This document shows, piece after piece, positions 1-7,614 of a DNA stretch of 11,338 nt. The stretch lies in IMG/VR virus record IMGVR_UViG_2671180395_000017; one strand, 5' to 3'. The translations under genes and the position numbers were made by a program. The notes under the pieces were generated by a model. It did not search any database. It worked only from the letters and a program-made list of their open reading frames with translations, and was not told the origin of the DNA. Position 1 is the stretch's first letter. Every line of letters starts with the position of its first letter. This stretch comes from a virus (taxonomy: Duplodnaviria; Heunggongvirae; Uroviricota; Caudoviricetes).

Positions 1-252
1 GCGCAGTTCACGATTTTCACGTTCCAGCTCTTTCAGACGCTGACGTTCAGCGGTGGTGAGTCCACCATCACCACTCCCGGTATCCCGCTCATGCTGACGA
101 ACCCACACACGCAGAGTCTCTGGTGTACAGCCAATCTTTGGGGCAATGGAACAAATTGCCGCCCATTGTGAGTCATATTCGCCCTGACTTTCCAGAACCA
201 TACGGACTGCCCGTTGACGGACCTCGGGGGAAAAACGTGTATTTTTAGTCAT
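1..252 (-). CDS. IS3-family transposase OrfA (helix-turn-helix N-terminal protein), 5' complete, 3' end beyond window start
   Basis: Minus-strand ATG at 252; the 84 codons translate to [84 protein letters not shown] with no stop before the window edge. HTH and leucine-zipper-like pattern typical of IS3-family OrfA. Confidence 0.85.
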
Positions 253-306
253 CCTGTTTACCTCTTTCTCAGGGAGTTTAGTCTCCAGGATTCCCGGGGC
301 GGTTCA
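1..306 (-). mobile_element. IS3-family insertion sequence, left end (IS629/IS1203-like); the rest lies beyond the window start
   Basis: Reverse complement of 253-306 reads TGAACCGCCCCGGGAATCCTGGAGACTAAACTCCCTGAGAAAGAGGTAAACAGG followed by ATGACTAAAAATACACG. From memory this matches the terminal inverted repeat and orfA start of IS629/IS1203-type elements (TG... terminus typical of the IS3 family). Element is oriented on the minus strand. Exact IS name not verified by search. Confidence 0.8.
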
Positions 307-839
307 ATCTGCTGGCCGGAACTAATGAATTTATTGGTGAAGGTGACGCATACATTCCGCCTCATACAGGTCTGCCAGCAAACAGTACCGATATTGCACC
401 GCCAGATATTCCGGCTGGCTTCGTGGCTGTTTTCAACAGTAATGAGGCATCGTGGCATCTCGTTGAAGATCATCGGGGTAAAACGGTTTATGACGTGGCT
501 TCCGGCGACGCGTTATTTATTTCTGAACTCGGTCCGTTACCGGAAAATGTTACCTGGTTGTCGCCGGATGGAGAGTGTCAGAAGTGGAACGGCACATCCT
601 GGGCGAAAGATGCAGAAGCAGAAAAACTGTTTCGGGTACGGGAGGCAGAAGAAACAAAAAACAGCCTGATGCAGGTAGCCAGTGAGCATATTGCGCCACT
701 TCAGGATGCCGTAGATTTGGATATTGCGACGGAGGAAGAGGCATCGTTACTGGCTGCATGGAAGACATATCGGGTATTGTTGAATCGTGTTGATACAACA
801 GTAGCAGCGGATGTTGAGTGGCCAGTCGCCCCACAATAA
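307..839 (+). pseudogene. tfa: Tail fiber assembly protein (Tfa family), 5'-truncated by the IS insertion; the first usable start in frame is GTG at 423 (ORF 423-839)
   Basis: Frame 0 translation from 303 reads [178 protein letters not shown]. This is recognisable as the lambdoid/e14 TfaE/TfaQ-type family, with a C-terminal pattern shared with P2 gpG. The reading frame runs straight into the IS terminus at 306, so about 15 N-terminal codons are missing. Confidence 0.8.
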
Positions 840-875
840 AAAGAAAAAGCCATCGACAGAAATATCGATGGCTTT
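836..875. terminator. Intergenic hairpin between convergent genes; likely rho-independent terminator, better for the minus-strand acetyltransferase transcript
   Basis: Inverted repeat AAAGCCATCGA (846-856) / TCGATGGCTTT (865-875) with an 8-nt loop. On the minus strand the stem is followed by TTTTTCTTTTT (complement of 836-846). On the plus strand it is followed only by TTTAT, so it is weaker for tfa. Confidence 0.55.
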
Positions 876-882
876 ATGTACT

Positions 883-1455
883 CTATTTATACAATACAAC
901 ACCACTCTTTTTAGTTATATATGTGCAGTTTGATGGTATATCTTTATTTATAAAAGACATTGCACCTATTTTTACATTATCCCCAATTTTACGTGATAAT
1001 CCAATGATGCAACAATTAGCTCCGATATCAACGTTACTACCAATTTTTACTCTTGAACTAGGCATATCACCATCTATCTGTCCAATGGTAGTATTCTGTC
1101 GTAATACCAGATTTTCACCCGCATCAACAGCAAAATGAACAACAATTCCAGCATGATGGGGAATTGTCAACCCTTTTCCAATATTTGCGCCCAATCCTAT
1201 TTCACAACCAAACTTGTTAATTATTTTACTGTTTAACTTTTTGGCTGCTTTCTTATGTAATTTATTACCATTAATATACATTTCGTTAGCCAACCGCCAC
1301 CAGAAAAGGAAATTCCGGTTACGCTGCTTTTTCTCTCTTAAAAGCCTCCAGATATCCATACGTTTCCGCCGAATTACTTCATGTTTCCAGAAGTTTTTTA
1401 AATTAGTAGAGTTTCCAAATAAAACAAAGTGAATTGCCATTAAGTAAGATAGCAC
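883..1455 (-). CDS. Hexapeptide-repeat O-acetyltransferase, serine acetyltransferase-like (CysE/WcaB family); cargo (moron) gene
   Basis: ORF track 883-1488. C-terminal half carries left-handed beta-helix hexapeptide repeats (GCEIGLGANIGKGLTIPHHAGIVVHFAVDAGENLVLRQNTTIGQ...IGSNVDIGANCCIIG...IGDNVKIGAMSFI). N-terminal helical region has the SAT-like pattern (FLFWWRLANEMYINGNKLHKKAAKKLNSKIINKFG). Preferred start is GTG at 1455, preceded by AAGGAG (complement of 1462-1467) with 6-nt spacing; alternative starts are GTG 1488 (longest) and ATG 1440. Region is visibly AT-rich compared with its neighbours. Confidence 0.75.
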   Translation of the reverse strand: MLSYLMAIHFVLFGNSTNLKNFWKHEVIRRKRMDIWRLLREKKQRNRNFLFWWRLANEMYINGNKLHKKAAKKLNSKIINKFGCEIGLGANIGKGLTIPHHAGIVVHFAVDAGENLVLRQNTTIGQIDGDMPSSRVKIGSNVDIGANCCIIGLSRKIGDNVKIGAMSFINKDIPSNCTYITKKSGVVLYK

Positions 1456-1506
1456 GATAATCTCCTTAATTATTATTTCAGACCACACATGTTATAAGGT
1501 TAAGAG

Positions 1507-1535
1507 ATTATAAAATCCTGTTATTTGTTATTCAA
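1507..1535 (-). promoter_or_regulatory. Candidate sigma70 promoter for the acetyltransferase gene
   Basis: Minus strand reads TTGAAT (complement of 1530-1535), a 17-nt spacer, then TATAAT (complement of 1507-1512). The -10 is perfect consensus and the -35 matches 4 of 6. It sits about 50 nt upstream of the proposed GTG start at 1455. Not experimentally supported. Confidence 0.5.
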
Positions 1536-1611
1536 AAACAATTTTCTGAGAAGGACATACAACAGCAAGTCGCCAGTCACCTTCATCAGGAAATTGGCGA
1601 CATACGTTAAA

Positions 1612-2106
1612 TCAGAGCAGCCCCTTAACTGAGCTGGCCGCGCTATTAAGGGATGATGTCACCTTATCTTTGAAGCCGGACAGCATATCGCTGAACGATG
1701 AGGATTGCAGGCGCTCCCGCAAATCCTCATCACAGCGTTCAAGAGTCAGTGAAAATTCTATCTTTTTCGCCTTACCGTAGCGATCAAACTCGGAGCGGGT
1801 CGTATTCGTTCCGGTCAGGACATACATGCCGTAAATCTGCCCGACGCCATCAATCAAAGGCCAAGGACGTCCTGTATATGCCTGCGTGGTCAACAACGAC
1901 AGCGACACTTCGCCACCAGTAATCTCAGGATAAAGAACACCAGAAAGAACGATGCGATCATCACCTGCACCGATATACTGCCAGCTTGCTGAACGGTTAA
2001 CGCGTTCATTTTTCACATGTCGCCAGCTTTTGTTTTGCTGTAACTGCTGATGCGGCAACGTGCGCAGCTCAAAAACAAACATGCCGTAGATCATCATCAT
2101 GGCCAT
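1612..2106 (-). CDS. P2 gpU-like tail protein
   Basis: 164-aa ORF immediately downstream of the tape measure gene (T stop at 2113-2115, U ATG at 2106, GGAG in the 6-nt spacer). Size and position match P2 gene U; N-terminus MAMMMIYGMFVFEL... resembles the gpU start. Alternative start at the internal ATG run. Confidence 0.75.
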   Translation of the reverse strand: MAMMMIYGMFVFELRTLPHQQLQQNKSWRHVKNERVNRSASWQYIGAGDDRIVLSGVLYPEITGGEVSLSLLTTQAYTGRPWPLIDGVGQIYGMYVLTGTNTTRSEFDRYGKAKKIEFSLTLERCDEDLRERLQSSSFSDMLSGFKDKVTSSLNSAASSVKGLL

Positions 2107-2112
2107 GACTCC

Positions 2113-2949
2113 TCAATCTTTATCGTAAAAACTGCCACGCCTGGCACGGGCGCGCCGTTCCATTTCTGCCCTGACCATTTCGCCGACCAGTTTCGCCAGT
2201 TCGCGGGGATTCTGCGTAACAACGTTATGCAGATGAACATGAATTTCACCGCCAAATCCGGAGGCAACAGGCTCCCGGTTACGGGAAGTTGCAGGAACTG
2301 ATGCCACTGGCGATCGTATGGCCTCCACCACCGGGCGGGAGCTGGCCGCAACAACAGGGACCAGCGCCGGAGGCAGCGGAGCCGGGACCACGGGTGTGAT
2401 ATTAATTGCGGGGGCAGGCTTACTGACCTGCGCAATCTTCCGCTCCTGCCACTCCCCACGAACAGCAAGTGCGCGGGGCAGGTTCTTAAAGACAATATCG
2501 CCGGGGCCAATGCGTTTTTTTGTCTCATCAACCAGCTTACCTGTGTTATCAGCAATTTTGCTGAGTCTGCGTAGCGTGCCGGTATTGCTGTCTGTGAGAG
2601 GTTTGTTGTCTTTGGGTTTATCATCTCCGGTGCCATTGCTATTTCCCGCAGACTTCGGCGGATTGATTTTCGCAATGTCTCCCTGAAACAGAGCAACCTT
2701 GTCCTGAAGAATGGCCGCACGTTGTGCGTCTTCGATTTTCTTGCGCGCCCTTTCCGCTTCATCCGGAAGCACACCGAGTTTTTCAAGTATCCACGCCAGC
2801 GTATCCAGCAACATTTTTGCAGGCGTCAGAACAAGCTGTAACGCACCACCAAGAACGTTACCGAATACCTCGCCAGCACTGGTACATTTATCCAGCGTTT
2901 CCTTGCTGGACTCCATCGGTGACAGCAGCGATTTAAACCAGTTAAACAC
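2113..2949 (-). CDS. Tail tape measure protein (P2 gpT-like), C-terminal fragment; same gene as 2826-4952, separated by a frameshift
   Basis: 278-aa ORF in the -1 frame relative to the upstream tape measure ORF, overlapping it by about 120 nt with no intergenic space or convincing start signal. Natural-looking sequence (Pro/Ala-rich linker, C-terminal ...EMERRARARRGSFYDKD). The ORF-track start at 2949 is a GTG. Confidence 0.8.
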   Translation of the reverse strand: MFNWFKSLLSPMESSKETLDKCTSAGEVFGNVLGGALQLVLTPAKMLLDTLAWILEKLGVLPDEAERARKKIEDAQRAAILQDKVALFQGDIAKINPPKSAGNSNGTGDDKPKDNKPLTDSNTGTLRRLSKIADNTGKLVDETKKRIGPGDIVFKNLPRALAVRGEWQERKIAQVSKPAPAINITPVVPAPLPPALVPVVAASSRPVVEAIRSPVASVPATSRNREPVASGFGGEIHVHLHNVVTQNPRELAKLVGEMVRAEMERRARARRGSFYDKD

Positions 2950-4952
2950 CTGGCTGAACCGCTTCCGATTACGTCAAAAACAGGGCCAAACCGTTCAAAG
3001 GTGTCGCGCAACGGGGTCAGCCTTTCCATAATCCCGCTGAACACCCCGGCAAAGAAAGCCCTGATAGGATCCCAGTATTTCCAGATAAGAACGGCAGCTC
3101 CGGCAAGCGCAGCCACGATAAGACCAACCGGACTGAACAACGCCCCGATAACGCCTCCCAGTAAAGAAACGGAACCCGTCACCATTCCCCATAGCGCAGG
3201 TAACACCCTGACGACATTCATTGACCGGGTAAGAATGTCAAAACCAAGACGCAGGGTGGCCAGCTTCCCGTAAAGCACCCCAATAACCAGCGACAACGAG
3301 CCAATCGTTGCAGTCATTGCCAGCAACGCACCGCCTGCTATCAGTAGCTGGCGCGTCAGTACCGGATGAGCCTGCGCCAGCGAGGTGATTTTTTCAAGCA
3401 CCCGCGTGAGCCACTGCGTGACAGAACGCAGCGGACCGTCAACCAGATCACTGATGCGAATACGAAGACCTTCCCATGCGCTGTCGAGATTTTTCAGGTC
3501 CCCATCAAGATTATCAGCCATTACTTTTGCGACGCGATCGGCCTCTCCCCTTGCCCCCTGCAATTCTCTGGTCAGTTTTTGCAGCTCTCCTGAACCAGCC
3601 GCCGCAACAAGCGTCTGCAAACCAACGAACGCCTCTTCTCCGGCGATGTCCTTGAAGAAGGAGACCTGGTCCACCTGTCCGTATTTTTGTGTCGCCTTAT
3701 AGAGATCAAGCAGCACATCCTCCATCGGGCGCATTTTGCCTCTGGCGTCAGCAACTGACACCCCCAGCTCTTTCAGTGCATCAGCCGCAGCTTTTGGCGG
3801 TGATGCAAGGCGGGACAGACTTGCGCGCATGGCCGTGCCAGCATCGCTTCCGCGAAGACCATTATTGGCAAGCATCCCGGCCATGGCCGCCGCTTCTTCA
3901 AGACTGATACCAAGTTTTGCGGCAACCGGACCGGTATACTTCATGGTTTCGCCCAGCGCGCGTAAATCAGTATTGGTCCGGGTAAATGCTGCTGTCAGCG
4001 TATCGCCCACCCGGTCCATTTGATCGGCTGTCAGGTTGAACTGTGTGAGGATATTGGAGCCTATATCAGCCGTCTCGCCGAGTTCGACGCCACCTGCCAG
4101 CGCCATATTAAGAACACCGGGCAATGCGGCCTGAATGGCCTGCGGAGTAAAACCAGCCATTGCCAGAAAGCTCTGCCCACTGGCGGCATCACTCGCAGTA
4201 AACTGTGTTTCAGCAAGTTTTAACGCCTGCTCACGCAGCGCCTTAAACTGCGGGCTGTTTTTGTCGATTCGCGTCAGTGCCTGAACGCGGGACATCTCTT
4301 TGCCGAACCCGATCGCAGGCTGCAAAAAACGCCCGGCAGCATAGCCGCCCGCCGCTGCCGCACCAATTGCCAGCGCACCACCTGTTTTCAGTTTTCCCGC
4401 GGTTTCCTGCGCGTGCGAATACCGCTCACGCGCCTGCGTTACACGCGCAAGCGCCTGCCGTTCGCGTTCAAGCTGGTTGTTGTATTGTTCGGTGCGTCTG
4501 ATGGCCTGCTGAATGGTGTTATCGCTGCCTGTCAGGGAAATGCCGTGGCGTTTCAGCTCTCCGCCAAGTTCCCTCATTTTCTGAATTTCCCGTGTGCGCG
4601 ATTCATTCAGGCGTTCAAGCCGGGTGCTTAACTGCTGCATCAGCTTTTGTTGTTTTTCGCTGAGCACTGTACCCGTGCGTTGTAACTGATTAAGGGCGTT
4701 AAGCTGGCGTCGTGCTTTCACGATGCCAGCATCCGCTTTACTGACAGCGTCGCGGGCGCGCTCAAATGATCGCGCCTGACGCTCGAGATTTTTGATCGCC
4801 CCCTGCGTTCGCTGGATGGAGTCACCAAACTGCCCCATCAGGCGGCGTGCGTTTTCGGCAGGTCGGGTCAGCCTGTCAACGGCGCTGAAAGCGACCCGGA
4901 TATCAAGAGTCTTCATTGTCTGCATTCCCGCTGCGAAGTGCCGCCCGCTCAC
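2826..4952 (-). CDS. Tail tape measure protein (P2 gpT-like), N-terminal fragment; last 40-50 codons are out-of-frame read-through
   Basis: 708-aa ORF. Long coiled-coil-like Q/R/E/L-rich N-terminal region, Ala/Gly-rich repeats, and C-terminal hydrophobic segments typical of tape measure proteins. Sits between E+E' and U as in P2. True start is probably ATG at 4916 (MKTLDIRV...) or 4925 rather than GTG at 4952. The tail (...SARCLTGLNRCCHRWSPARKRW...) looks like frame noise. Confidence 0.85.
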   Translation of the reverse strand: MSGRHFAAGMQTMKTLDIRVAFSAVDRLTRPAENARRLMGQFGDSIQRTQGAIKNLERQARSFERARDAVSKADAGIVKARRQLNALNQLQRTGTVLSEKQQKLMQQLSTRLERLNESRTREIQKMRELGGELKRHGISLTGSDNTIQQAIRRTEQYNNQLERERQALARVTQARERYSHAQETAGKLKTGGALAIGAAAAGGYAAGRFLQPAIGFGKEMSRVQALTRIDKNSPQFKALREQALKLAETQFTASDAASGQSFLAMAGFTPQAIQAALPGVLNMALAGGVELGETADIGSNILTQFNLTADQMDRVGDTLTAAFTRTNTDLRALGETMKYTGPVAAKLGISLEEAAAMAGMLANNGLRGSDAGTAMRASLSRLASPPKAAADALKELGVSVADARGKMRPMEDVLLDLYKATQKYGQVDQVSFFKDIAGEEAFVGLQTLVAAAGSGELQKLTRELQGARGEADRVAKVMADNLDGDLKNLDSAWEGLRIRISDLVDGPLRSVTQWLTRVLEKITSLAQAHPVLTRQLLIAGGALLAMTATIGSLSLVIGVLYGKLATLRLGFDILTRSMNVVRVLPALWGMVTGSVSLLGGVIGALFSPVGLIVAALAGAAVLIWKYWDPIRAFFAGVFSGIMERLTPLRDTFERFGPVFDVIGSGSARCLTGLNRCCHRWSPARKRWINVPVLARYSVTFLVVRYSLF

Positions 4953-5432
4953 GCCAGCTAACCACTTCGCCGGGCGTCATCATGAAGATTTCGGCGGGCG
5001 ACCAGTTAAAAATAACGGCAATATCTGCCACAAAGTCTTCTATGTGCTCAAAGCACACAACCGTGATCAGGCTTCCGTCGCCTGTTCGTTCTTCCCGCCA
5101 GAGTCCGCACCGCTCAAAAAATTTACGGCAACCACACATAACTGAATAAAGTCACGGGATGCCATTTTTTTGATCGTCACTTCATCCAGTCGCGGTGATG
5201 TCACGCGTGACAGCAGCGTAAACATGGATTCCGCTTTCAGATTCAGCACATCAGACAGCGACAAATCTCGCAGAGATCCAGCCTGCTCAATAGCCCCGGT
5301 GATCTCCACATACGTGATTTTTTCGCCGCCTCGCTCAATTGGTTGGGTAAGTTTTACACCACGCTCACTGGTTTCTTTCACAGTGTCAGTAACTACCGTG
5401 TTTTCGGTATCGATGTTTTTCGTCTCTTTCAT
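4903..5432 (-). CDS. E+E' fusion product made by programmed -1 ribosomal frameshift (P2 E/E' equivalent)
   Basis: The -1 frame is open from the slippery site to 4903 (ORF-track 4903-5139, ...KFFERCGLWREERTGDGSLITVVCFEHIEDFVADIAVIFNWSPAEIFMMTPGEVVSWRERAALRSGNADNEDS). Its end overlaps the tape measure start, the arrangement seen in P2 and in lambda G/GT. Confidence 0.7.
5067..5432 (-). CDS. P2 gpE-like tail assembly chaperone (short product)
   Basis: 121-aa ORF with ATG at 5432 preceded by AGGAG at 7-nt spacing. Lies between the tube gene and the tape measure gene and contains the T_TTT_TTG slippery site near its 3' end. Confidence 0.8.
   Translation of the reverse strand: MKETKNIDTENTVVTDTVKETSERGVKLTQPIERGGEKITYVEITGAIEQAGSLRDLSLSDVLNLKAESMFTLLSRVTSPRLDEVTIKKMASRDFIQLCVVAVNFLSGADSGGKNEQATEA
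5115..5121 (-). other. Programmed -1 frameshift slippery heptamer T_TTT_TTG
   Basis: Minus-strand sequence GTA AAT TTT TTG AGC in the E frame; the heptamer T TTT TTG (complement of 5115-5121) is in the X_XXY_YYZ register and the -1 frame downstream is open. Confidence 0.7.
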
Positions 5433-5486
5433 CAGGAAACTCCTTTCAGTCAGAGGCGACGCACTGCGCCGCCTGCATATTACTTA

Positions 5487-5999
5487 TCAGCCAAGCCCAA
5501 GCGCGGAACGGATGCGATCGGGCACAATGTCCTTGCCGTCCTTCCGGTAAATGAAGTTCAGCAGGTCAATCTCCCACAACGGGCGATCGTTAACACTCAG
5601 CTTGTAGTAGGTGTTTTTAATGGCGTAAGTGTGTGATGTGGCTTCGCCCTGTTTGGCTTCCCCCATATCAATTTCCGTCACACGTCCGCGCATTTCGACT
5701 TCATACAGGTCGCTTTCATCATCGGTGTAGTATTCCCCCGCAAAACGCAGTAGCGTGCCGTCAATCGTGCCGCCATACTTCAGGAACAGCTCACGAACTG
5801 CGCCCCCCATGACAAAGCTCGCATCAAGCGCGGAGTCGTCCAGGCCGAGGTCAATACTTACCGCACCCATCATGCCACCACCCCGGTAGCTGTCGGTTTT
5901 GCGCGTCAGTTTAGGCAGGGTGACGGACGTCACCTTACCCACTTCGTTTTCACCATCCACAAACAGCGTAAAAAAGCGAAGATGTTTTGGTACAGCCAT
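5487..5999 (-). CDS. Tail tube protein (P2 FII-like)
   Basis: 170-aa ORF immediately after the sheath gene; the sheath stop TGA and the tube start ATG share one nucleotide at 5999 (TGATG). Size and position match P2 FII. Confidence 0.9.
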   Translation of the reverse strand: MAVPKHLRFFTLFVDGENEVGKVTSVTLPKLTRKTDSYRGGGMMGAVSIDLGLDDSALDASFVMGGAVRELFLKYGGTIDGTLLRFAGEYYTDDESDLYEVEMRGRVTEIDMGEAKQGEATSHTYAIKNTYYKLSVNDRPLWEIDLLNFIYRKDGKDIVPDRIRSALGLG

Positions 6000-7183
6000 C
6001 AGGCACCTCCCAGCACCGCAAATGCGGGACCAAAGAATTCATCAGTAAACGACTGGTAAAGCTCCATGTCTTCCAGCGGAGGAACGGGCGTATATTTGTA
6101 GCGAATACGCACACGCCCCTGACGTAAATTCGTGGTGCTGTTATCCTCGATGTCATACCAGCACTCCGCGCCAATCAGTTTCCCGGCAGTAACCAGTGAA
6201 TCCAGTTTTGCCCTGATGGCACTGATAACATCCTTCACGTTCGCAGGTGTCAGTGGACTGTCGATGGTTTCAAACTGCGCTTCCGCAATTGAATCAGCCA
6301 GCACCTGTGCGGTTCGGGTATACACCTCAAAGATGTAGGCGTTCGTTTCCGGTGTGCGGTTGCCCCAGAAGCGGAACCCGTTGCGACGAATAATGGTCGT
6401 GATTTCTTTGTTGTTGAGGCTGTTGGCATCACTGTCTTCGGCCTGCAACGACCAGAACACATGCCTCGACATCCCAAGCACATTTTTAACCGGAACGTTG
6501 GACAGCGATTTGTGCCAGCCCTGCTCATGGTCAATGTACGCACGAAGGCCGCACGCATAAGCAGGCGCGGGGAACGTTTCGTTTTTGCCACTTTTCAGGT
6601 TGTAGGCGATGAAGTCAGGCCATAAGAGCATCACCTCACGTTCGTTGAATTTCTGGCGGTAGGTAATCGCCTCAGCCATCGTGTTACAACCATGACATGT
6701 GGCATACACAAACGCGCGCAGTTTACCCGCAATCACGCACAGGGATTTTGTTACCGCCTCCGTGTCCAGCTCCGGCGCGGCCAGAATACGCGGACGGTAT
6801 CCGATGCTTTCATCCTGCTCTGCAACAAGCAGCGCATACATCCCCGTATAGCTGCCGTCAGATTCAGAACCACCGATAACCAGTTGATCCTGCGTCTTAC
6901 CGCCTTCTTCTTTGTGTTCAGCCACGCGAACGACGATCACTTTTGTGCTCACCTGGTCTGCGATAGCCTTAAGCGCACGATAAAGCGTCCCCGTAGTCCC
7001 GCATTTTCCCAGCACGTCATTGACGCGGGTCAGCAGTGTGGGCTTGTTCAGCGGGAACAGCTCCGCGTCCGCATCATCTGCCGTTGCCACGATACCGATA
7101 ACACTGGAATCAACATCATTAATCGCTGTTACCAGGTCGGTACTTTCCGTAACACGGGCACCATGAAAACGAGTTTCACTCAT
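5999..7183 (-). CDS. Contractile tail sheath protein (P2 FI-like)
   Basis: 394-aa ORF with ATG at 7183 preceded by AAGGGG at about 8-nt spacing. Size and order (sheath, tube, E/E', T, U) are those of the P2 FI gene. Confidence 0.9.
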   Translation of the reverse strand: MSETRFHGARVTESTDLVTAINDVDSSVIGIVATADDADAELFPLNKPTLLTRVNDVLGKCGTTGTLYRALKAIADQVSTKVIVVRVAEHKEEGGKTQDQLVIGGSESDGSYTGMYALLVAEQDESIGYRPRILAAPELDTEAVTKSLCVIAGKLRAFVYATCHGCNTMAEAITYRQKFNEREVMLLWPDFIAYNLKSGKNETFPAPAYACGLRAYIDHEQGWHKSLSNVPVKNVLGMSRHVFWSLQAEDSDANSLNNKEITTIIRRNGFRFWGNRTPETNAYIFEVYTRTAQVLADSIAEAQFETIDSPLTPANVKDVISAIRAKLDSLVTAGKLIGAECWYDIEDNSTTNLRQGRVRIRYKYTPVPPLEDMELYQSFTDEFFGPAFAVLGGA

Positions 7184-7340
7184 AGCTTCAGCCCCTTGTA
7201 TCCGTTAAATGATTCGGCAACAATCATCACCCACCACGCGCGTAATCTCACCCCTGCGCCGTTCTCCCGCCACGGCGACAACAAAAAGCAGTAACCCCCT
7301 CCGCACGCACATGCGACCATGCCGCACAGGGAGGGAACAG

Positions 7341-7607
7341 ATGACCGACACCACCATGCAATTGCTCAGTCAGGGCACAGACCACGTGAAAGTGCCGGAT
7401 TTTGATATTCTCGCGGAGGGTAAAACGCTGTCAGGCGTGGCAGAGCGCCTGATGAGCCTGTCACTGACCGACAACCGGGGATTTGAGGCGGACCAGCTCA
7501 CCATCACGCTGGATGATGCAGATGGTCAGTTGCAGCTACCGCCACGGGGCGCGCGCCTGACGGTTCTCATTGGCTGGAAAGGAGAACCGCTGACAGAAAA
7601 AGGCACT
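7341..7607 (+). pseudogene. P2 gene D-like tail protein, 5' fragment (89 codons) truncated by IS30
   Basis: ATG at 7341 preceded by GGGAGGGAA. Translation MTDTTMQLLSQGTDHVKVPDFDILAEGKTLSGVAERLMSLSLTDNRGFEADQLTITLDDADGQLQLPPRGARLTVLIGWKGEPLTEKGT carries the gpD N-terminal motif LTDNRGFEADQL...LDDADGQ...LP.RGA.L. The frame runs directly into the IS30 inverted repeat at 7608. Confidence 0.8.
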
Positions 7608-7614
7608 TGTAGAT

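Follow-up and report, generated by a model that had tools for sequence, protein, structure and literature searches.

The window analyzed here has 11,338 nucleotides, and up to position 8787 its sequence matches exactly that of a defective P2-like prophage of E. coli O157:H7. The tail fibre assembly gene tfa (306..839, plus strand; phrog_105) has lost its first 45 bp to an IS3-family element that truncates its 5′ end at position 306. Facing it in convergent orientation is a single cargo gene (883..1455, minus strand; GTG start 1455–1453, stop codon 883–885) that encodes a protein of 190 residues; its open reading frame (886–1455, minus strand) specifies the same 190-aa protein as RefSeq WP_000954203.1. 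Some RefSeq annotations already use the name ‘LbetaH domain-containing protein’ instead of serine acetyltransferase. On its upstream side, the cargo slot is bounded by a gene for a tail protein like P2 gpU (1612..2100, minus strand; phrog_76), the last gene of an FI-FII-E-T-U block. Compared with P2, these tail genes run in the inverted orientation, which places the cargo gene between tfa and gpU and not between tfa and FI.

The cargo gene differs from its neighbors in composition. Its open reading frame has a GC content of 0.340 and a GC3 of 0.284, compared with 0.496 for tfa, 0.499 for gpU, and 0.540 for the tail block at 1612–7183. The first-pass annotation had described an AT-rich, compositionally foreign gene transcribed opposite to tfa, and both statements hold: 34% GC stands against about 50–54% for the neighbors, and the gene is on the minus strand with tfa on the plus strand. 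Compared with five homologues, dN/dS is 0.11–0.16 (the comparison with L002 was out of register and was left out); the gene is under purifying selection and functional.

The same annotation had also credited the gene with a near-consensus promoter, a ribosome-binding site, and a hairpin terminator of its own; a promoter-like site and the other two elements are present. The Shine-Dalgarno motif AAGGAG, as read from the sequence (1462..1467, minus strand), lies 6 nt 5′ of the GTG and is kept in loci L072, L080, L081, and L082. A sigma-70 promoter-like site, TTGAAT-17 nt-TATAAT (1507..1535, minus strand), agrees with the consensus at 10 of 12 positions, and 51 nt separate the end of its −10 element from the start codon. 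The AT-rich stretch holds four promoter-like matches, not higher than the 3.5 ± 1.8 found in shuffles, and the promoter call therefore rests on position and conservation. L082, whose protein is just 71% identical, retains exactly this site with its spacing and the 5′ UTR; the P1-like copies do not share the promoter-like site of the window gene. From these signals we infer that the gene is transcribed from the predicted promoter.

Downstream of the gene lies a two-way intrinsic terminator (836..875, both strands), built from a strong 13-bp stem-loop at 846–875 and, for the minus-strand transcript, a U-run at 836–845; on that strand the stem is followed by UUUUUCUUUUU. Its folding energy is −18.8 kcal/mol on the minus strand (z = −4.8) and −16.1 kcal/mol on the plus strand (z = −4.9), and on either strand 0 of 200 shuffles folded as well. 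Flanked by the stop codons of tfa (839) and the acetyltransferase (883), the terminator is shared by the two convergent genes. A second stable hairpin (1560..1609, minus strand; −22.3 kcal/mol, z = −3.8, 0/200 shuffles as good) begins 3 nt past the gpU stop, and L082 carries a different GC-rich hairpin at the matching place after gpU. The 1560..1609 hairpin may terminate the late tail operon and keep late transcription out of the cargo gene. The only Rfam match here was IS009, inside tfa, and the idea of a known RNA element in this region was rejected.

Comparison with P2 places the slot at the Z/fun position, and in P2-like prophages the slot after the tail-fibre assembly gene has been named ‘moron position 2’ (PMC3573123). 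The window gene lies directly after tfa, on the opposite strand, outside the late operons, and has an atypical composition. The earlier assignment to the P2 Z/fun slot thus stands as to position, but not as to the neighbor, since the P2 slot is bounded by FI and the window slot by gpU. Sibling prophages that share the tfa and gpU flanks differ in what lies between them: AR_0128 has a GT9 glycosyltransferase, strain S9 an alternative tfa′ and fibre′ with an invertase, forming an invertible fibre segment, and O157-type prophages the acetyltransferase gene. This bears out the proposal of a variable cargo position; the content varies between otherwise syntenic prophages and is therefore dispensable.

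Two characterized occupants of this position allow direct comparison. P2 fun(Z) likewise follows G and a terminator on the opposite strand and is non-essential lysogenic-conversion cargo, but it is unrelated to the window gene, much larger (1587 bp), and blocks phage T5. The neaT gene of CFT073 occupies ‘moron position 2’, where it immediately follows the gene for tail-fibre assembly and lies on the strand opposite to tfa; it has 29.8% GC and its own promoter in the lysogen, and it encodes a predicted acyl/acetyltransferase that is thought to be envelope-modifying and has a demonstrated virulence phenotype (PMC3573123). The window gene shares with neaT the slot, the orientation, and the organization as a single AT-rich gene (34% GC). 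The two proteins differ: NeaT is an integral-membrane Acyl_transf_3 protein (PF01757) related to Oac of phage Sf6, whereas the window protein has no PF01757 match in Pfam and is modeled as a soluble helical and beta-helix protein.

The AlphaFold model of the monomer (pLDDT 96) consists of five helices (residues 2–82) followed by a left-handed beta-helix (residues 83–180) with regularly spaced short strands throughout. Foldseek matched it with probability 1.0 to left-handed beta-helix acetyltransferases, the top matches being serine acetyltransferases with a TM score of about 0.73, and NCBIfam and PDB sequence matches also back the fold. The search of the BFVD viral structures returned generic beta-helix matches only (TM ≤ 0.4). 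The expected profile matches did not materialize, as Hexapep stayed under its Pfam gathering score (24.4 versus 27 bits) and the Pfam search of the 190-aa protein gave no match to SATase_N; the expected beta-helix was recovered by structure prediction. The best PHROG match is to phrog_2154, of unknown function (E = 2.9e-87, 291.9 bits; residues 13–190 on positions 3–181 of the 185-position profile). Judged by its predicted structure, the protein is a member of the hexapeptide, or left-handed beta-helix, acyltransferase superfamily. Its putative catalytic His100 aligns with CysE H158 and with the WcaB histidine and is nearly invariant (at least 90% of 101 homologues), and putative catalytic Glu85 aligns with CysE D143. 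AlphaFold, Foldseek, and alignment thus agree with the first-pass description of a CysE/WcaB-type enzyme with a catalytic histidine. The N-terminal helical domain is very basic, with a pI of 11.4.

By sequence comparison, the window protein is closer to WcaB than to CysE, the identity being 35% with K-12 WcaB (E = 6e-16) and 29% with CysE (E = 1e-9). WcaB, the colanic acid O-acetyltransferase of K-12, is its closest characterized E. coli relative, the 35% identity extending over the beta-helix. Both proteins are small, have a short helical N-domain and an active-site His-His motif, and end with the beta-helix at the same C-terminal point. The product names of neighboring K-12 genes indicate that WcaB acts on an undecaprenyl-diphosphate-linked sugar intermediate. 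Unlike the window gene, K-12 wcaB is not mobile and resides in the chromosomal colanic acid operon between wcaA and wcaC; the N-terminal domains cannot be aligned by BLAST, and the WcaB models TIGR04016 and PRK10191 score the window protein at 54.4 and 55.8 bits, far under their cut-offs of 194.65 and 196.

Full-length members of the family score 125–137 bits to the window protein, compared with 58 for WcaB and 42 for CysE, and several have surroundings linked to LPS. On the Leminorella chromosome, the homologue closes the series GT8-WaaY-WaaZ and is convergent with WaaL; in Halopseudomonas it follows HldE, MsbA, and a WaaP-family kinase; in Pseudomonas it lies between a WaaP-like kinase with a GT2 on one side and UDP-glucose dehydrogenase on the other; and in Intestinirhabdus it adjoins ugd and arn-like genes. 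In the slot beside the tail fibre, the homologue is followed by a GT25 in a Xenorhabdus prophage and by a GT9 in a Morganella prophage, the latter homologous to the GT9 in the AR_0128 slot (E = 1e-24). In the same slot of a further phage member (L088), it adjoins a YibB/HtrL equivalog. Thus, chromosomal relatives are located in LPS-core clusters and phage relatives are paired with LPS-type glycosyltransferases, which is new here. The LPS-cluster relatives belong to another subfamily, only 43–48% identical to the window protein, and acceptor specificity can shift across that range of identity. Many relatives lie at uninformative sites: after hok at a prophage end, beside integrases, alone in chromosomes, or near colicin and toxin-antitoxin genes carried by virulence and conjugative plasmids. 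A scan of genome contigs returned at least about 14 true family members among the matches listed, the others being mostly generic beta-helix or serine acetyltransferase genes that offer no basis for frequencies. At these genome-contig loci, the only phage marker gene among the tblastn matches listed was a tfa next to a Gilliamella pseudogene.

Our preferred reading, in which we place about even confidence, is that the gene is a prophage ‘moron’ encoding a lysogen-expressed O-acetyltransferase of the WcaB/CysE branch that modifies an envelope glycan, probably LPS; the acceptor and the effect on phages are what we infer. The first-pass proposal of surface-polysaccharide modification is better supported now, by the gene neighborhoods of the relatives. 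A single horizontally acquired gene would be expressed alone in the lysogen to yield a soluble, probably trimeric, acetyl-CoA-dependent enzyme in which His100 would act as the general base with Glu85 in support. The very basic N-terminal helical domain may keep the enzyme at the membrane, where it would acetylate a hydroxyl on a sugar in an envelope glycan during assembly of that glycan on its lipid carrier, on the cytoplasmic side of the inner membrane. The likeliest target would be lipopolysaccharide, either the core or a unit added to the core. The acetylated glycan would alter the cell surface and thereby change or block the adsorption of phages that use that structure, possibly including carriers of the linked fibre tip, and host fitness may change too. 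Literature searches on the gene and its family found nothing on function, neither experiment nor transcript data, and the protein is absent from the main text of an O157 proteome paper.

The mechanism proposed is that of NeuO, to which the window gene is likened by description and not by sequence. NeuO is reportedly the K1 capsule O-acetyltransferase of prophage CUS-3, a hexapeptide-family enzyme described by Deszo et al. in 2005. It is said to be encoded beside the phage receptor-binding protein gene, as the window gene lies beside a receptor-binding module, and to modify the glycan that the phage recognizes. The host phage is reportedly P22-like, and heptanucleotide repeats are said to turn NeuO expression on and off. 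In the window, positions 1–2172, which cover 883–1535, yielded no tandem repeat, and NeuO-like phase variation is accordingly rejected.

A different role for the enzyme would be intracellular, as an anti-phage defence protein or another small-molecule acetyltransferase acting on a metabolite of phage or cellular origin, a xenobiotic, or an antibiotic; any protection of the lysogen or plasmid host would then act after phage DNA entry. We regard this as unlikely. The distribution of the gene is compatible with it: the gene is single-gene cargo on many mobile elements, in defence-rich places and in both P2 cargo hotspots, and old, tin, and Z/fun, the cargo genes of P2 itself, each act to exclude other phages. 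The copy in ESSI2_ev040 adjoins an ‘abortive infection family protein’ and an integrase, a Pantoea copy lies beside Wadjet JetD and IS21, and copies on conjugative plasmids lie beside toxin-antitoxin and colicin genes. The hexapeptide superfamily, moreover, takes in xenobiotic acetyltransferases. However, none of the 5027 PADLOC models (PADLOC-DB 2.0) matched at E ≤ 1, no literature tying the family to defence was found, and the nearest sequence relatives are sugar and serine O-acetyltransferases and not the xenobiotic branch. The recurrent association with LPS glycosyltransferases and LPS-core operons also finds no explanation in an intracellular role.

It is far less probable that the protein is a genuine serine O-acetyltransferase, an auxiliary metabolic gene that would raise cysteine synthesis or trigger the CysB regulon in the lysogen. 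This reading draws on the RefSeq name ‘serine O-acetyltransferase’, on the solved structures and folds that match best, which are CysE enzymes, and on the NCBIfam search, in which the cysE and EpsC models score highest. Those scores nevertheless fall well short of the curated cut-offs, which the protein failed in every case: 62.4 bits against 210.65 for cysE model TIGR01172, 36.6 against 397 for PRK11132, and 76 against 150 for EpsC. The window protein resembles CysE in its helical N-domain, left-handed beta-helix, and catalytic His/acid pair, but it differs at each of the other CysE hallmarks. Its N-domain has 82 residues in place of about 140, a loss of about 60, and contains no SATase_N domain. 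CysE serine-binding D157 is replaced by Pro99, and R192/H193 by Ser/Arg at positions that vary across the family. The protein ends with the beta-helix and has no C-terminal regulatory, CysK-binding tail. The greater similarity to WcaB also argues against this reading, as do the RefSeq entries that have dropped the name. The PDB matches include no WcaB structure, so the CysE fold matches may reflect only what has been solved. A true CysE was thus rejected, and the ‘SAT-like’ label of the first pass fails if it is taken to mean a true serine acetyltransferase; on these sequence criteria, the database name “serine acetyltransferase” is almost certainly wrong.

The association of the gene with tfa extends well beyond the window. 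Of 13 testable phage clusters in IMG/VR (de-replicated at 90% identity), 10 have a convergent tfa within 150 bp of the gene, and one more (L094-L098) has the order fibre-tfa-gene on the same strand. Hafnia phage yong2 has the convergent arrangement too, with a protein 35% identical, and intact O157-type prophages also have the cargo gene converging on tfa and the fibre gene. A single block made up of the fibre tip, tfa, and the acetyltransferase gene is common to the P2-like and P1-like copies, whose homology stops at the acetyltransferase start codon. The convergence with tfa spans P2-like, P1-like, and other phages and is not confined to P2-like phages, which is new here. A lambdoid prophage, in turn, carries a SAM methyltransferase in the place after tfa, and thousands of genomes carry the same type of tfa without the acetyltransferase gene. 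The place after tfa is thus a general cargo site, and the linkage may reflect hitch-hiking and not functional matching.

A tentative extension of the preferred reading, which we think doubtful but worth stating, is that the fibre tip, tfa, and the acetyltransferase form one exchangeable ‘recognise-and-mask’ cassette whose enzyme acetylates the LPS bound by the linked fibre. Such a cassette would move between P2-like, P1-like, and other phages; LPS would be acetylated at its cytoplasmic assembly stage, and a new lysogen would at once become blind to phages equipped with that fibre. Within-gene recombination can exchange the middle, acceptor-facing portion of the enzyme, as in the P0007/L082 mosaic allele, and such swaps would let the mask diversify along with the fibre.

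Least probable of all is a role in the phage particle, in which the enzyme would, during morphogenesis, modify the tail fibre, the fibre chaperone, or a glycan bound to the fibre; such a role would account for the persistence of the gene next to tfa. In its favor are the tight and repeated tfa/fibre adjacency over wide divergence, the place of the gene after fibre and tfa on the same strand in the L094-L098 cluster, and its co-direction with the late FI-to-U genes in the window. Against it stand the usually opposite strand to tfa, the promoter-like site that the gene has for itself, the stable hairpin between the gene and gpU, sibling phages without the gene, the intact gene where the fibre gene is deleted, and the gene or its relatives at sites remote from any fibre, on plasmids and in LPS operons of chromosomes; no left-handed beta-helix acetyltransferase is known to act on virion proteins.

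An envelope-sugar acetyltransferase is an ordinary kind of prophage cargo, yet this one bears the label “serine acetyltransferase” everywhere. It is present in about 9% of complete E. coli genomes (510/5426), including essentially all of the O157:H7 lineage, and in P1-like phage-plasmids, with relatives on many conjugative plasmids. If the enzyme acetylates LPS, the gene would be a widespread and unnoticed source of LPS heterogeneity affecting phage host range, with relevance to phage therapy and to phage typing of STEC, and immune recognition could be affected. It would also add a cytoplasmic beta-helix class to the prophage seroconversion toolkit, which so far consists mostly of membrane Oac/Gtr enzymes, and the tfa linkage would offer a simple rule, open to testing, by which receptor-modifying genes can be located beside receptor-binding genes.

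The cargo region holds one open reading frame, on the minus strand, which runs for 190 codons from a GTG start (886-1455, stop at 883-885) and encodes exactly the RefSeq protein WP_000954203.1. Its GC content is 0.34 (GC3 0.28), versus 0.50 in the tail fibre assembly gene tfa, 0.50 in the gpU gene and 0.54 in the tail block. An AAGGAG motif can be read six bases upstream of the start codon, and a 13-bp hairpin at 846-875 lies between the convergent stop codons of tfa and the acetyltransferase gene. This hairpin folds on both strands far above shuffled sequences (z = -4.8 and -4.9), and on the acetyltransferase side it is followed by a clean run of U. Another stable hairpin is present just past the gpU stop (1560-1609; z = -3.8 versus shuffles), where it might keep the cargo gene apart from the late tail operon. 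Composition, reading frame, promoter-like site and hairpins thus confirm the first-pass annotation in its description of an AT-rich foreign gene, opposed to tfa, with a ribosome-binding site and a hairpin terminator. The proposed sigma70 promoter stays putative: TTGAAT-17-TATAAT is present at 1535-1507 (minus strand), and site, spacing and leader are all retained in L082, a locus with a protein of only 71% identity, but promoter-like sites in the AT-rich cargo DNA are no more numerous than chance predicts. Compared with five homologues, the gene has a dN/dS of 0.11-0.16 and is therefore under purifying selection.

The genomic contexts of relatives offer a candidate acceptor. Non-phage family members match the window protein over their full length at 125-137 bits, versus 58 for WcaB and 42 for CysE. 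In Leminorella grimontii, the LPS outer-core operon ends with the homologue, after GT8, WaaY and WaaZ genes, and WaaL is convergent with it. In Halopseudomonas, HldE, MsbA and a WaaP-family kinase precede the homologue; in Pseudomonas, it lies between a GT2 gene and UDP-glucose dehydrogenase, with a WaaP-like kinase upstream; and in Intestinirhabdus, it adjoins ugd and arn-like genes. Prophages repeat the association: homologues are paired with GT25 in Xenorhabdus and with GT9 in Morganella, each in a slot beside the tail fibre, and with a YibB/HtrL equivalog in the prophage locus L088. In E. coli AR_0128, the place of the acetyltransferase gene is taken by a GT9 gene homologous to that of Morganella. 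WcaB-type enzymes act in the cytoplasm on lipid-linked sugar intermediates, as reflected in the K-12 annotation of neighbouring genes. The LPS-cluster relatives, the pairing with LPS-type enzymes and the substrates of WcaB-type enzymes together suggest LPS O-acetylation, which would modify the core or an added unit during cytoplasmic assembly. This reading has two weak points. The LPS-cluster members belong to another subfamily, only 43-48% identical, and many other homologues have uninformative surroundings: prophage ends next to hok, sites adjoining integrases, virulence plasmids, the vicinity of colicin or toxin-antitoxin genes on conjugative plasmids, and stand-alone positions. The surface-polysaccharide role suggested at first reading thus gains support from the LPS-core and glycosyltransferase neighbourhoods, and we give even chances to a lysogen-expressed O-acetyltransferase of envelope glycan, probably LPS. 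An intracellular defence role is possible, as the family occupies defence-rich cargo sites, but neither the PADLOC defence models nor the literature supports it, and it leaves the LPS associations unexplained.

The assignment as a CysE/WcaB-type acetyltransferase is borne out by alignment, fold matches and the catalytic histidine. The Pfam Hexapep score (24.4) is below its threshold of 27, and so are the NCBIfam scores for EpsC (76, cut-off 150), cysE (62, cut-off 211) and WcaB (55, cut-off 195), while phrog_2154, a PHROG family of 'unknown function', is matched at 292 bits. The AlphaFold model, built with 100 homologues as input, reaches a pLDDT of 96 and comprises five helices (residues 2-82) followed by a left-handed beta-helix (83-180). 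The N-domain is strongly basic (pI 11.4). The top solved-structure folds are serine acetyltransferases (TM about 0.73), but a true serine acetyltransferase is contradicted by residues and architecture. In an alignment with K-12 WcaB and CysE, the nearly invariant His100 aligns to the catalytic histidine and Glu85 to CysE Asp143, whereas the serine-binding Asp157 of CysE is replaced by proline and Arg192/His193 are not retained. Compared with CysE, the protein lacks about 60 N-domain residues and the C-terminal tail, and its end coincides exactly with that of WcaB, to which it is 35% identical (E = 6e-16) versus 29% for CysE (E = 1e-9). We conclude that the protein belongs to the WcaB/CysE branch and is predicted to be active as an O-acetyltransferase; these comparisons do not bear out the database name 'serine O-acetyltransferase', a misannotation. 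Some RefSeq records carry only the name 'LbetaH domain-containing protein'.

The gene occupies a real cargo slot. Between the same tfa and gpU flanks, sibling prophages carry other contents, as had been anticipated: the GT9 glycosyltransferase in AR_0128 and an alternative fibre/tfa pair with an invertase in strain S9. Of 5426 complete E. coli genomes, 510 have the gene itself. Phage P2 (L018) carries fun(Z) after G and its terminator, on the opposite strand, and the suggested equivalence with this position is borne out: the gene follows tfa on the opposite strand, with gpU, not FI, at the far boundary. Whereas tfa and gpD are oriented as in P2, the FI-FII-E-T-U block (1612-7183) runs the other way round, so that FI and D diverge from a common 170-bp region and the slot, limited by G and FI in P2, here has tfa and gpU as its flanks. 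The inverted layout recurs in several independent E. coli prophages (including L015 and L016) and is therefore a trait of the lineage rather than a rearrangement at one locus. The intact O157-type prophage L001 carries, between its tail-fibre gene and tfa (12511-13413), a gene for a 300-aa Macro-domain protein (PF01661, 68 bits), which some of the acetyltransferase-bearing prophages share and the P1-like copy lacks. Known ligands or substrates of Macro domains are ADP-ribose derivatives, O-acetyl-ADP-ribose included.

Positions 1-8787 match E. coli O157:H7 genomes, ATCC 43894 among them, at 100% identity; there they belong to a decayed P2-like prophage adjoining the leuZ-cysT-glyW tRNA genes and uvrC. 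The end of an IS3-family element (1-306; 94% identical to IS1203) cuts 45 bp off the start of tfa and marks in O157:H7 a deletion from the replication/ParM genes into tfa, with loss of the head, lysis, baseplate and fibre genes; strain PV15-279 has a more complete version. The tape-measure gene (2113-4952) is split into two overlapping frames, 'frameshifted' in RefSeq for ATCC 43894, which is further evidence of a defective prophage. An IS30 insertion (7341-8787) cuts gpD after about 90 codons, and runs of N break up this region and later reading frames. A role in virion assembly is contradicted, since the acetyltransferase gene is opposed to tfa and has signals of its own, is absent from sibling phages, survives where the fibre gene is deleted, and has family members on plasmids and in LPS operons. 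Within tfa, 604-802 (plus strand) is a full-length match to Rfam IS009 (RF02111, 191 bits, E = 8e-47), a family that may simply be conserved tfa coding DNA. Contiguity with the O157 genomes ends at 8788, and a perfect TATTTC repeat (17.8 copies) occupies 8802-8908. Two adjacent reading frames at 9584-10619 share a near-identical Zn-ribbon/lysine-rich segment and the same 9-bp repeats (9770-9797 and 10134-10161), which suggests that a NinG-like lambdoid gene was partly duplicated; the gene after them (10616-11281) encodes a lambda-type Ser/Thr phosphatase.

Linkage to tfa extends across phage types. The P1-like phage JL22 carries a 91% identical copy between two convergent tfa genes of its cin-invertible fibre segment. 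Homology between the P2-like and P1-like copies takes in the acetyltransferase frame, tfa and about 1 kb at the 3' end of the fibre gene; it ends at the acetyltransferase start codon, so the promoter lies outside the common block. In IMG/VR, 80 loci formed 15 clusters at 90% protein identity, and in 10 of the 13 evaluable clusters the acetyltransferase stop codon lies no more than 150 bp from a convergent tfa, even where identity falls to 45% for the acetyltransferase and 40% for tfa. In one further cluster, fibre, tfa and the gene share a strand, and in another a YibB gene is interposed. Hafnia phage yong2 (35% identity) has the same convergent layout. The converse fails: window-type tfa occurs in thousands of genomes without the gene, and the site after tfa also takes unrelated cargo, such as a SAM methyltransferase in a lambdoid prophage. 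The linkage may therefore reflect either functional matching or hitch-hiking on a recombination-prone neighbour. That fibre tip, chaperone and receptor mask travel as one mobile cassette we consider rather unlikely.

In the same tfa-gpU slot, L082 carries a mosaic allele (5001-5570; protein P0007) with promoter and leader unchanged. Its two ends agree with the window allele (22/25 over residues 1-25 and 32/32 over 159-190), whereas residues 61-158 agree at 84 of 98 positions with P0030, an allele found after hok at prophage ends, and at only about 54% with the window protein; the catalytic, acceptor-facing core has therefore been swapped by intragenic recombination. Plasmids carry the family too: 222 have relatives with 60-80% nucleotide identity, and 146 of these plasmids are conjugative (IncFII, IncK2/Z and others). 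Plasmid relatives such as L197 (6934-7521) and L198 (5966-6556) are located in accessory DNA, close to genes for colicins and toxin-antitoxin systems. The family is therefore cargo of mobile elements in general, phages being only one kind of carrier.

In proposed mechanism, NeuO of prophage CUS-3 comes closest among known cases, but the window gene lacks repeats of the NeuO type; in enzyme class, WcaB does. In position and logic, the nearest is neaT of CFT073, an AT-rich, opposite-strand acyltransferase gene that was shown to be expressed under its own promoter in the same slot, named 'moron position 2' (Wiles et al. 2013, PMC3573123). A 2026 survey found acetyltransferases in 5-30% of Klebsiella prophages and proposed the same kind of surface remodelling. 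Prophage acetyltransferase cargo is a kind already known, within which the window gene is uncharacterised; new are the misannotation, the family-wide linkage to tfa across phage types and the relatives in LPS clusters.
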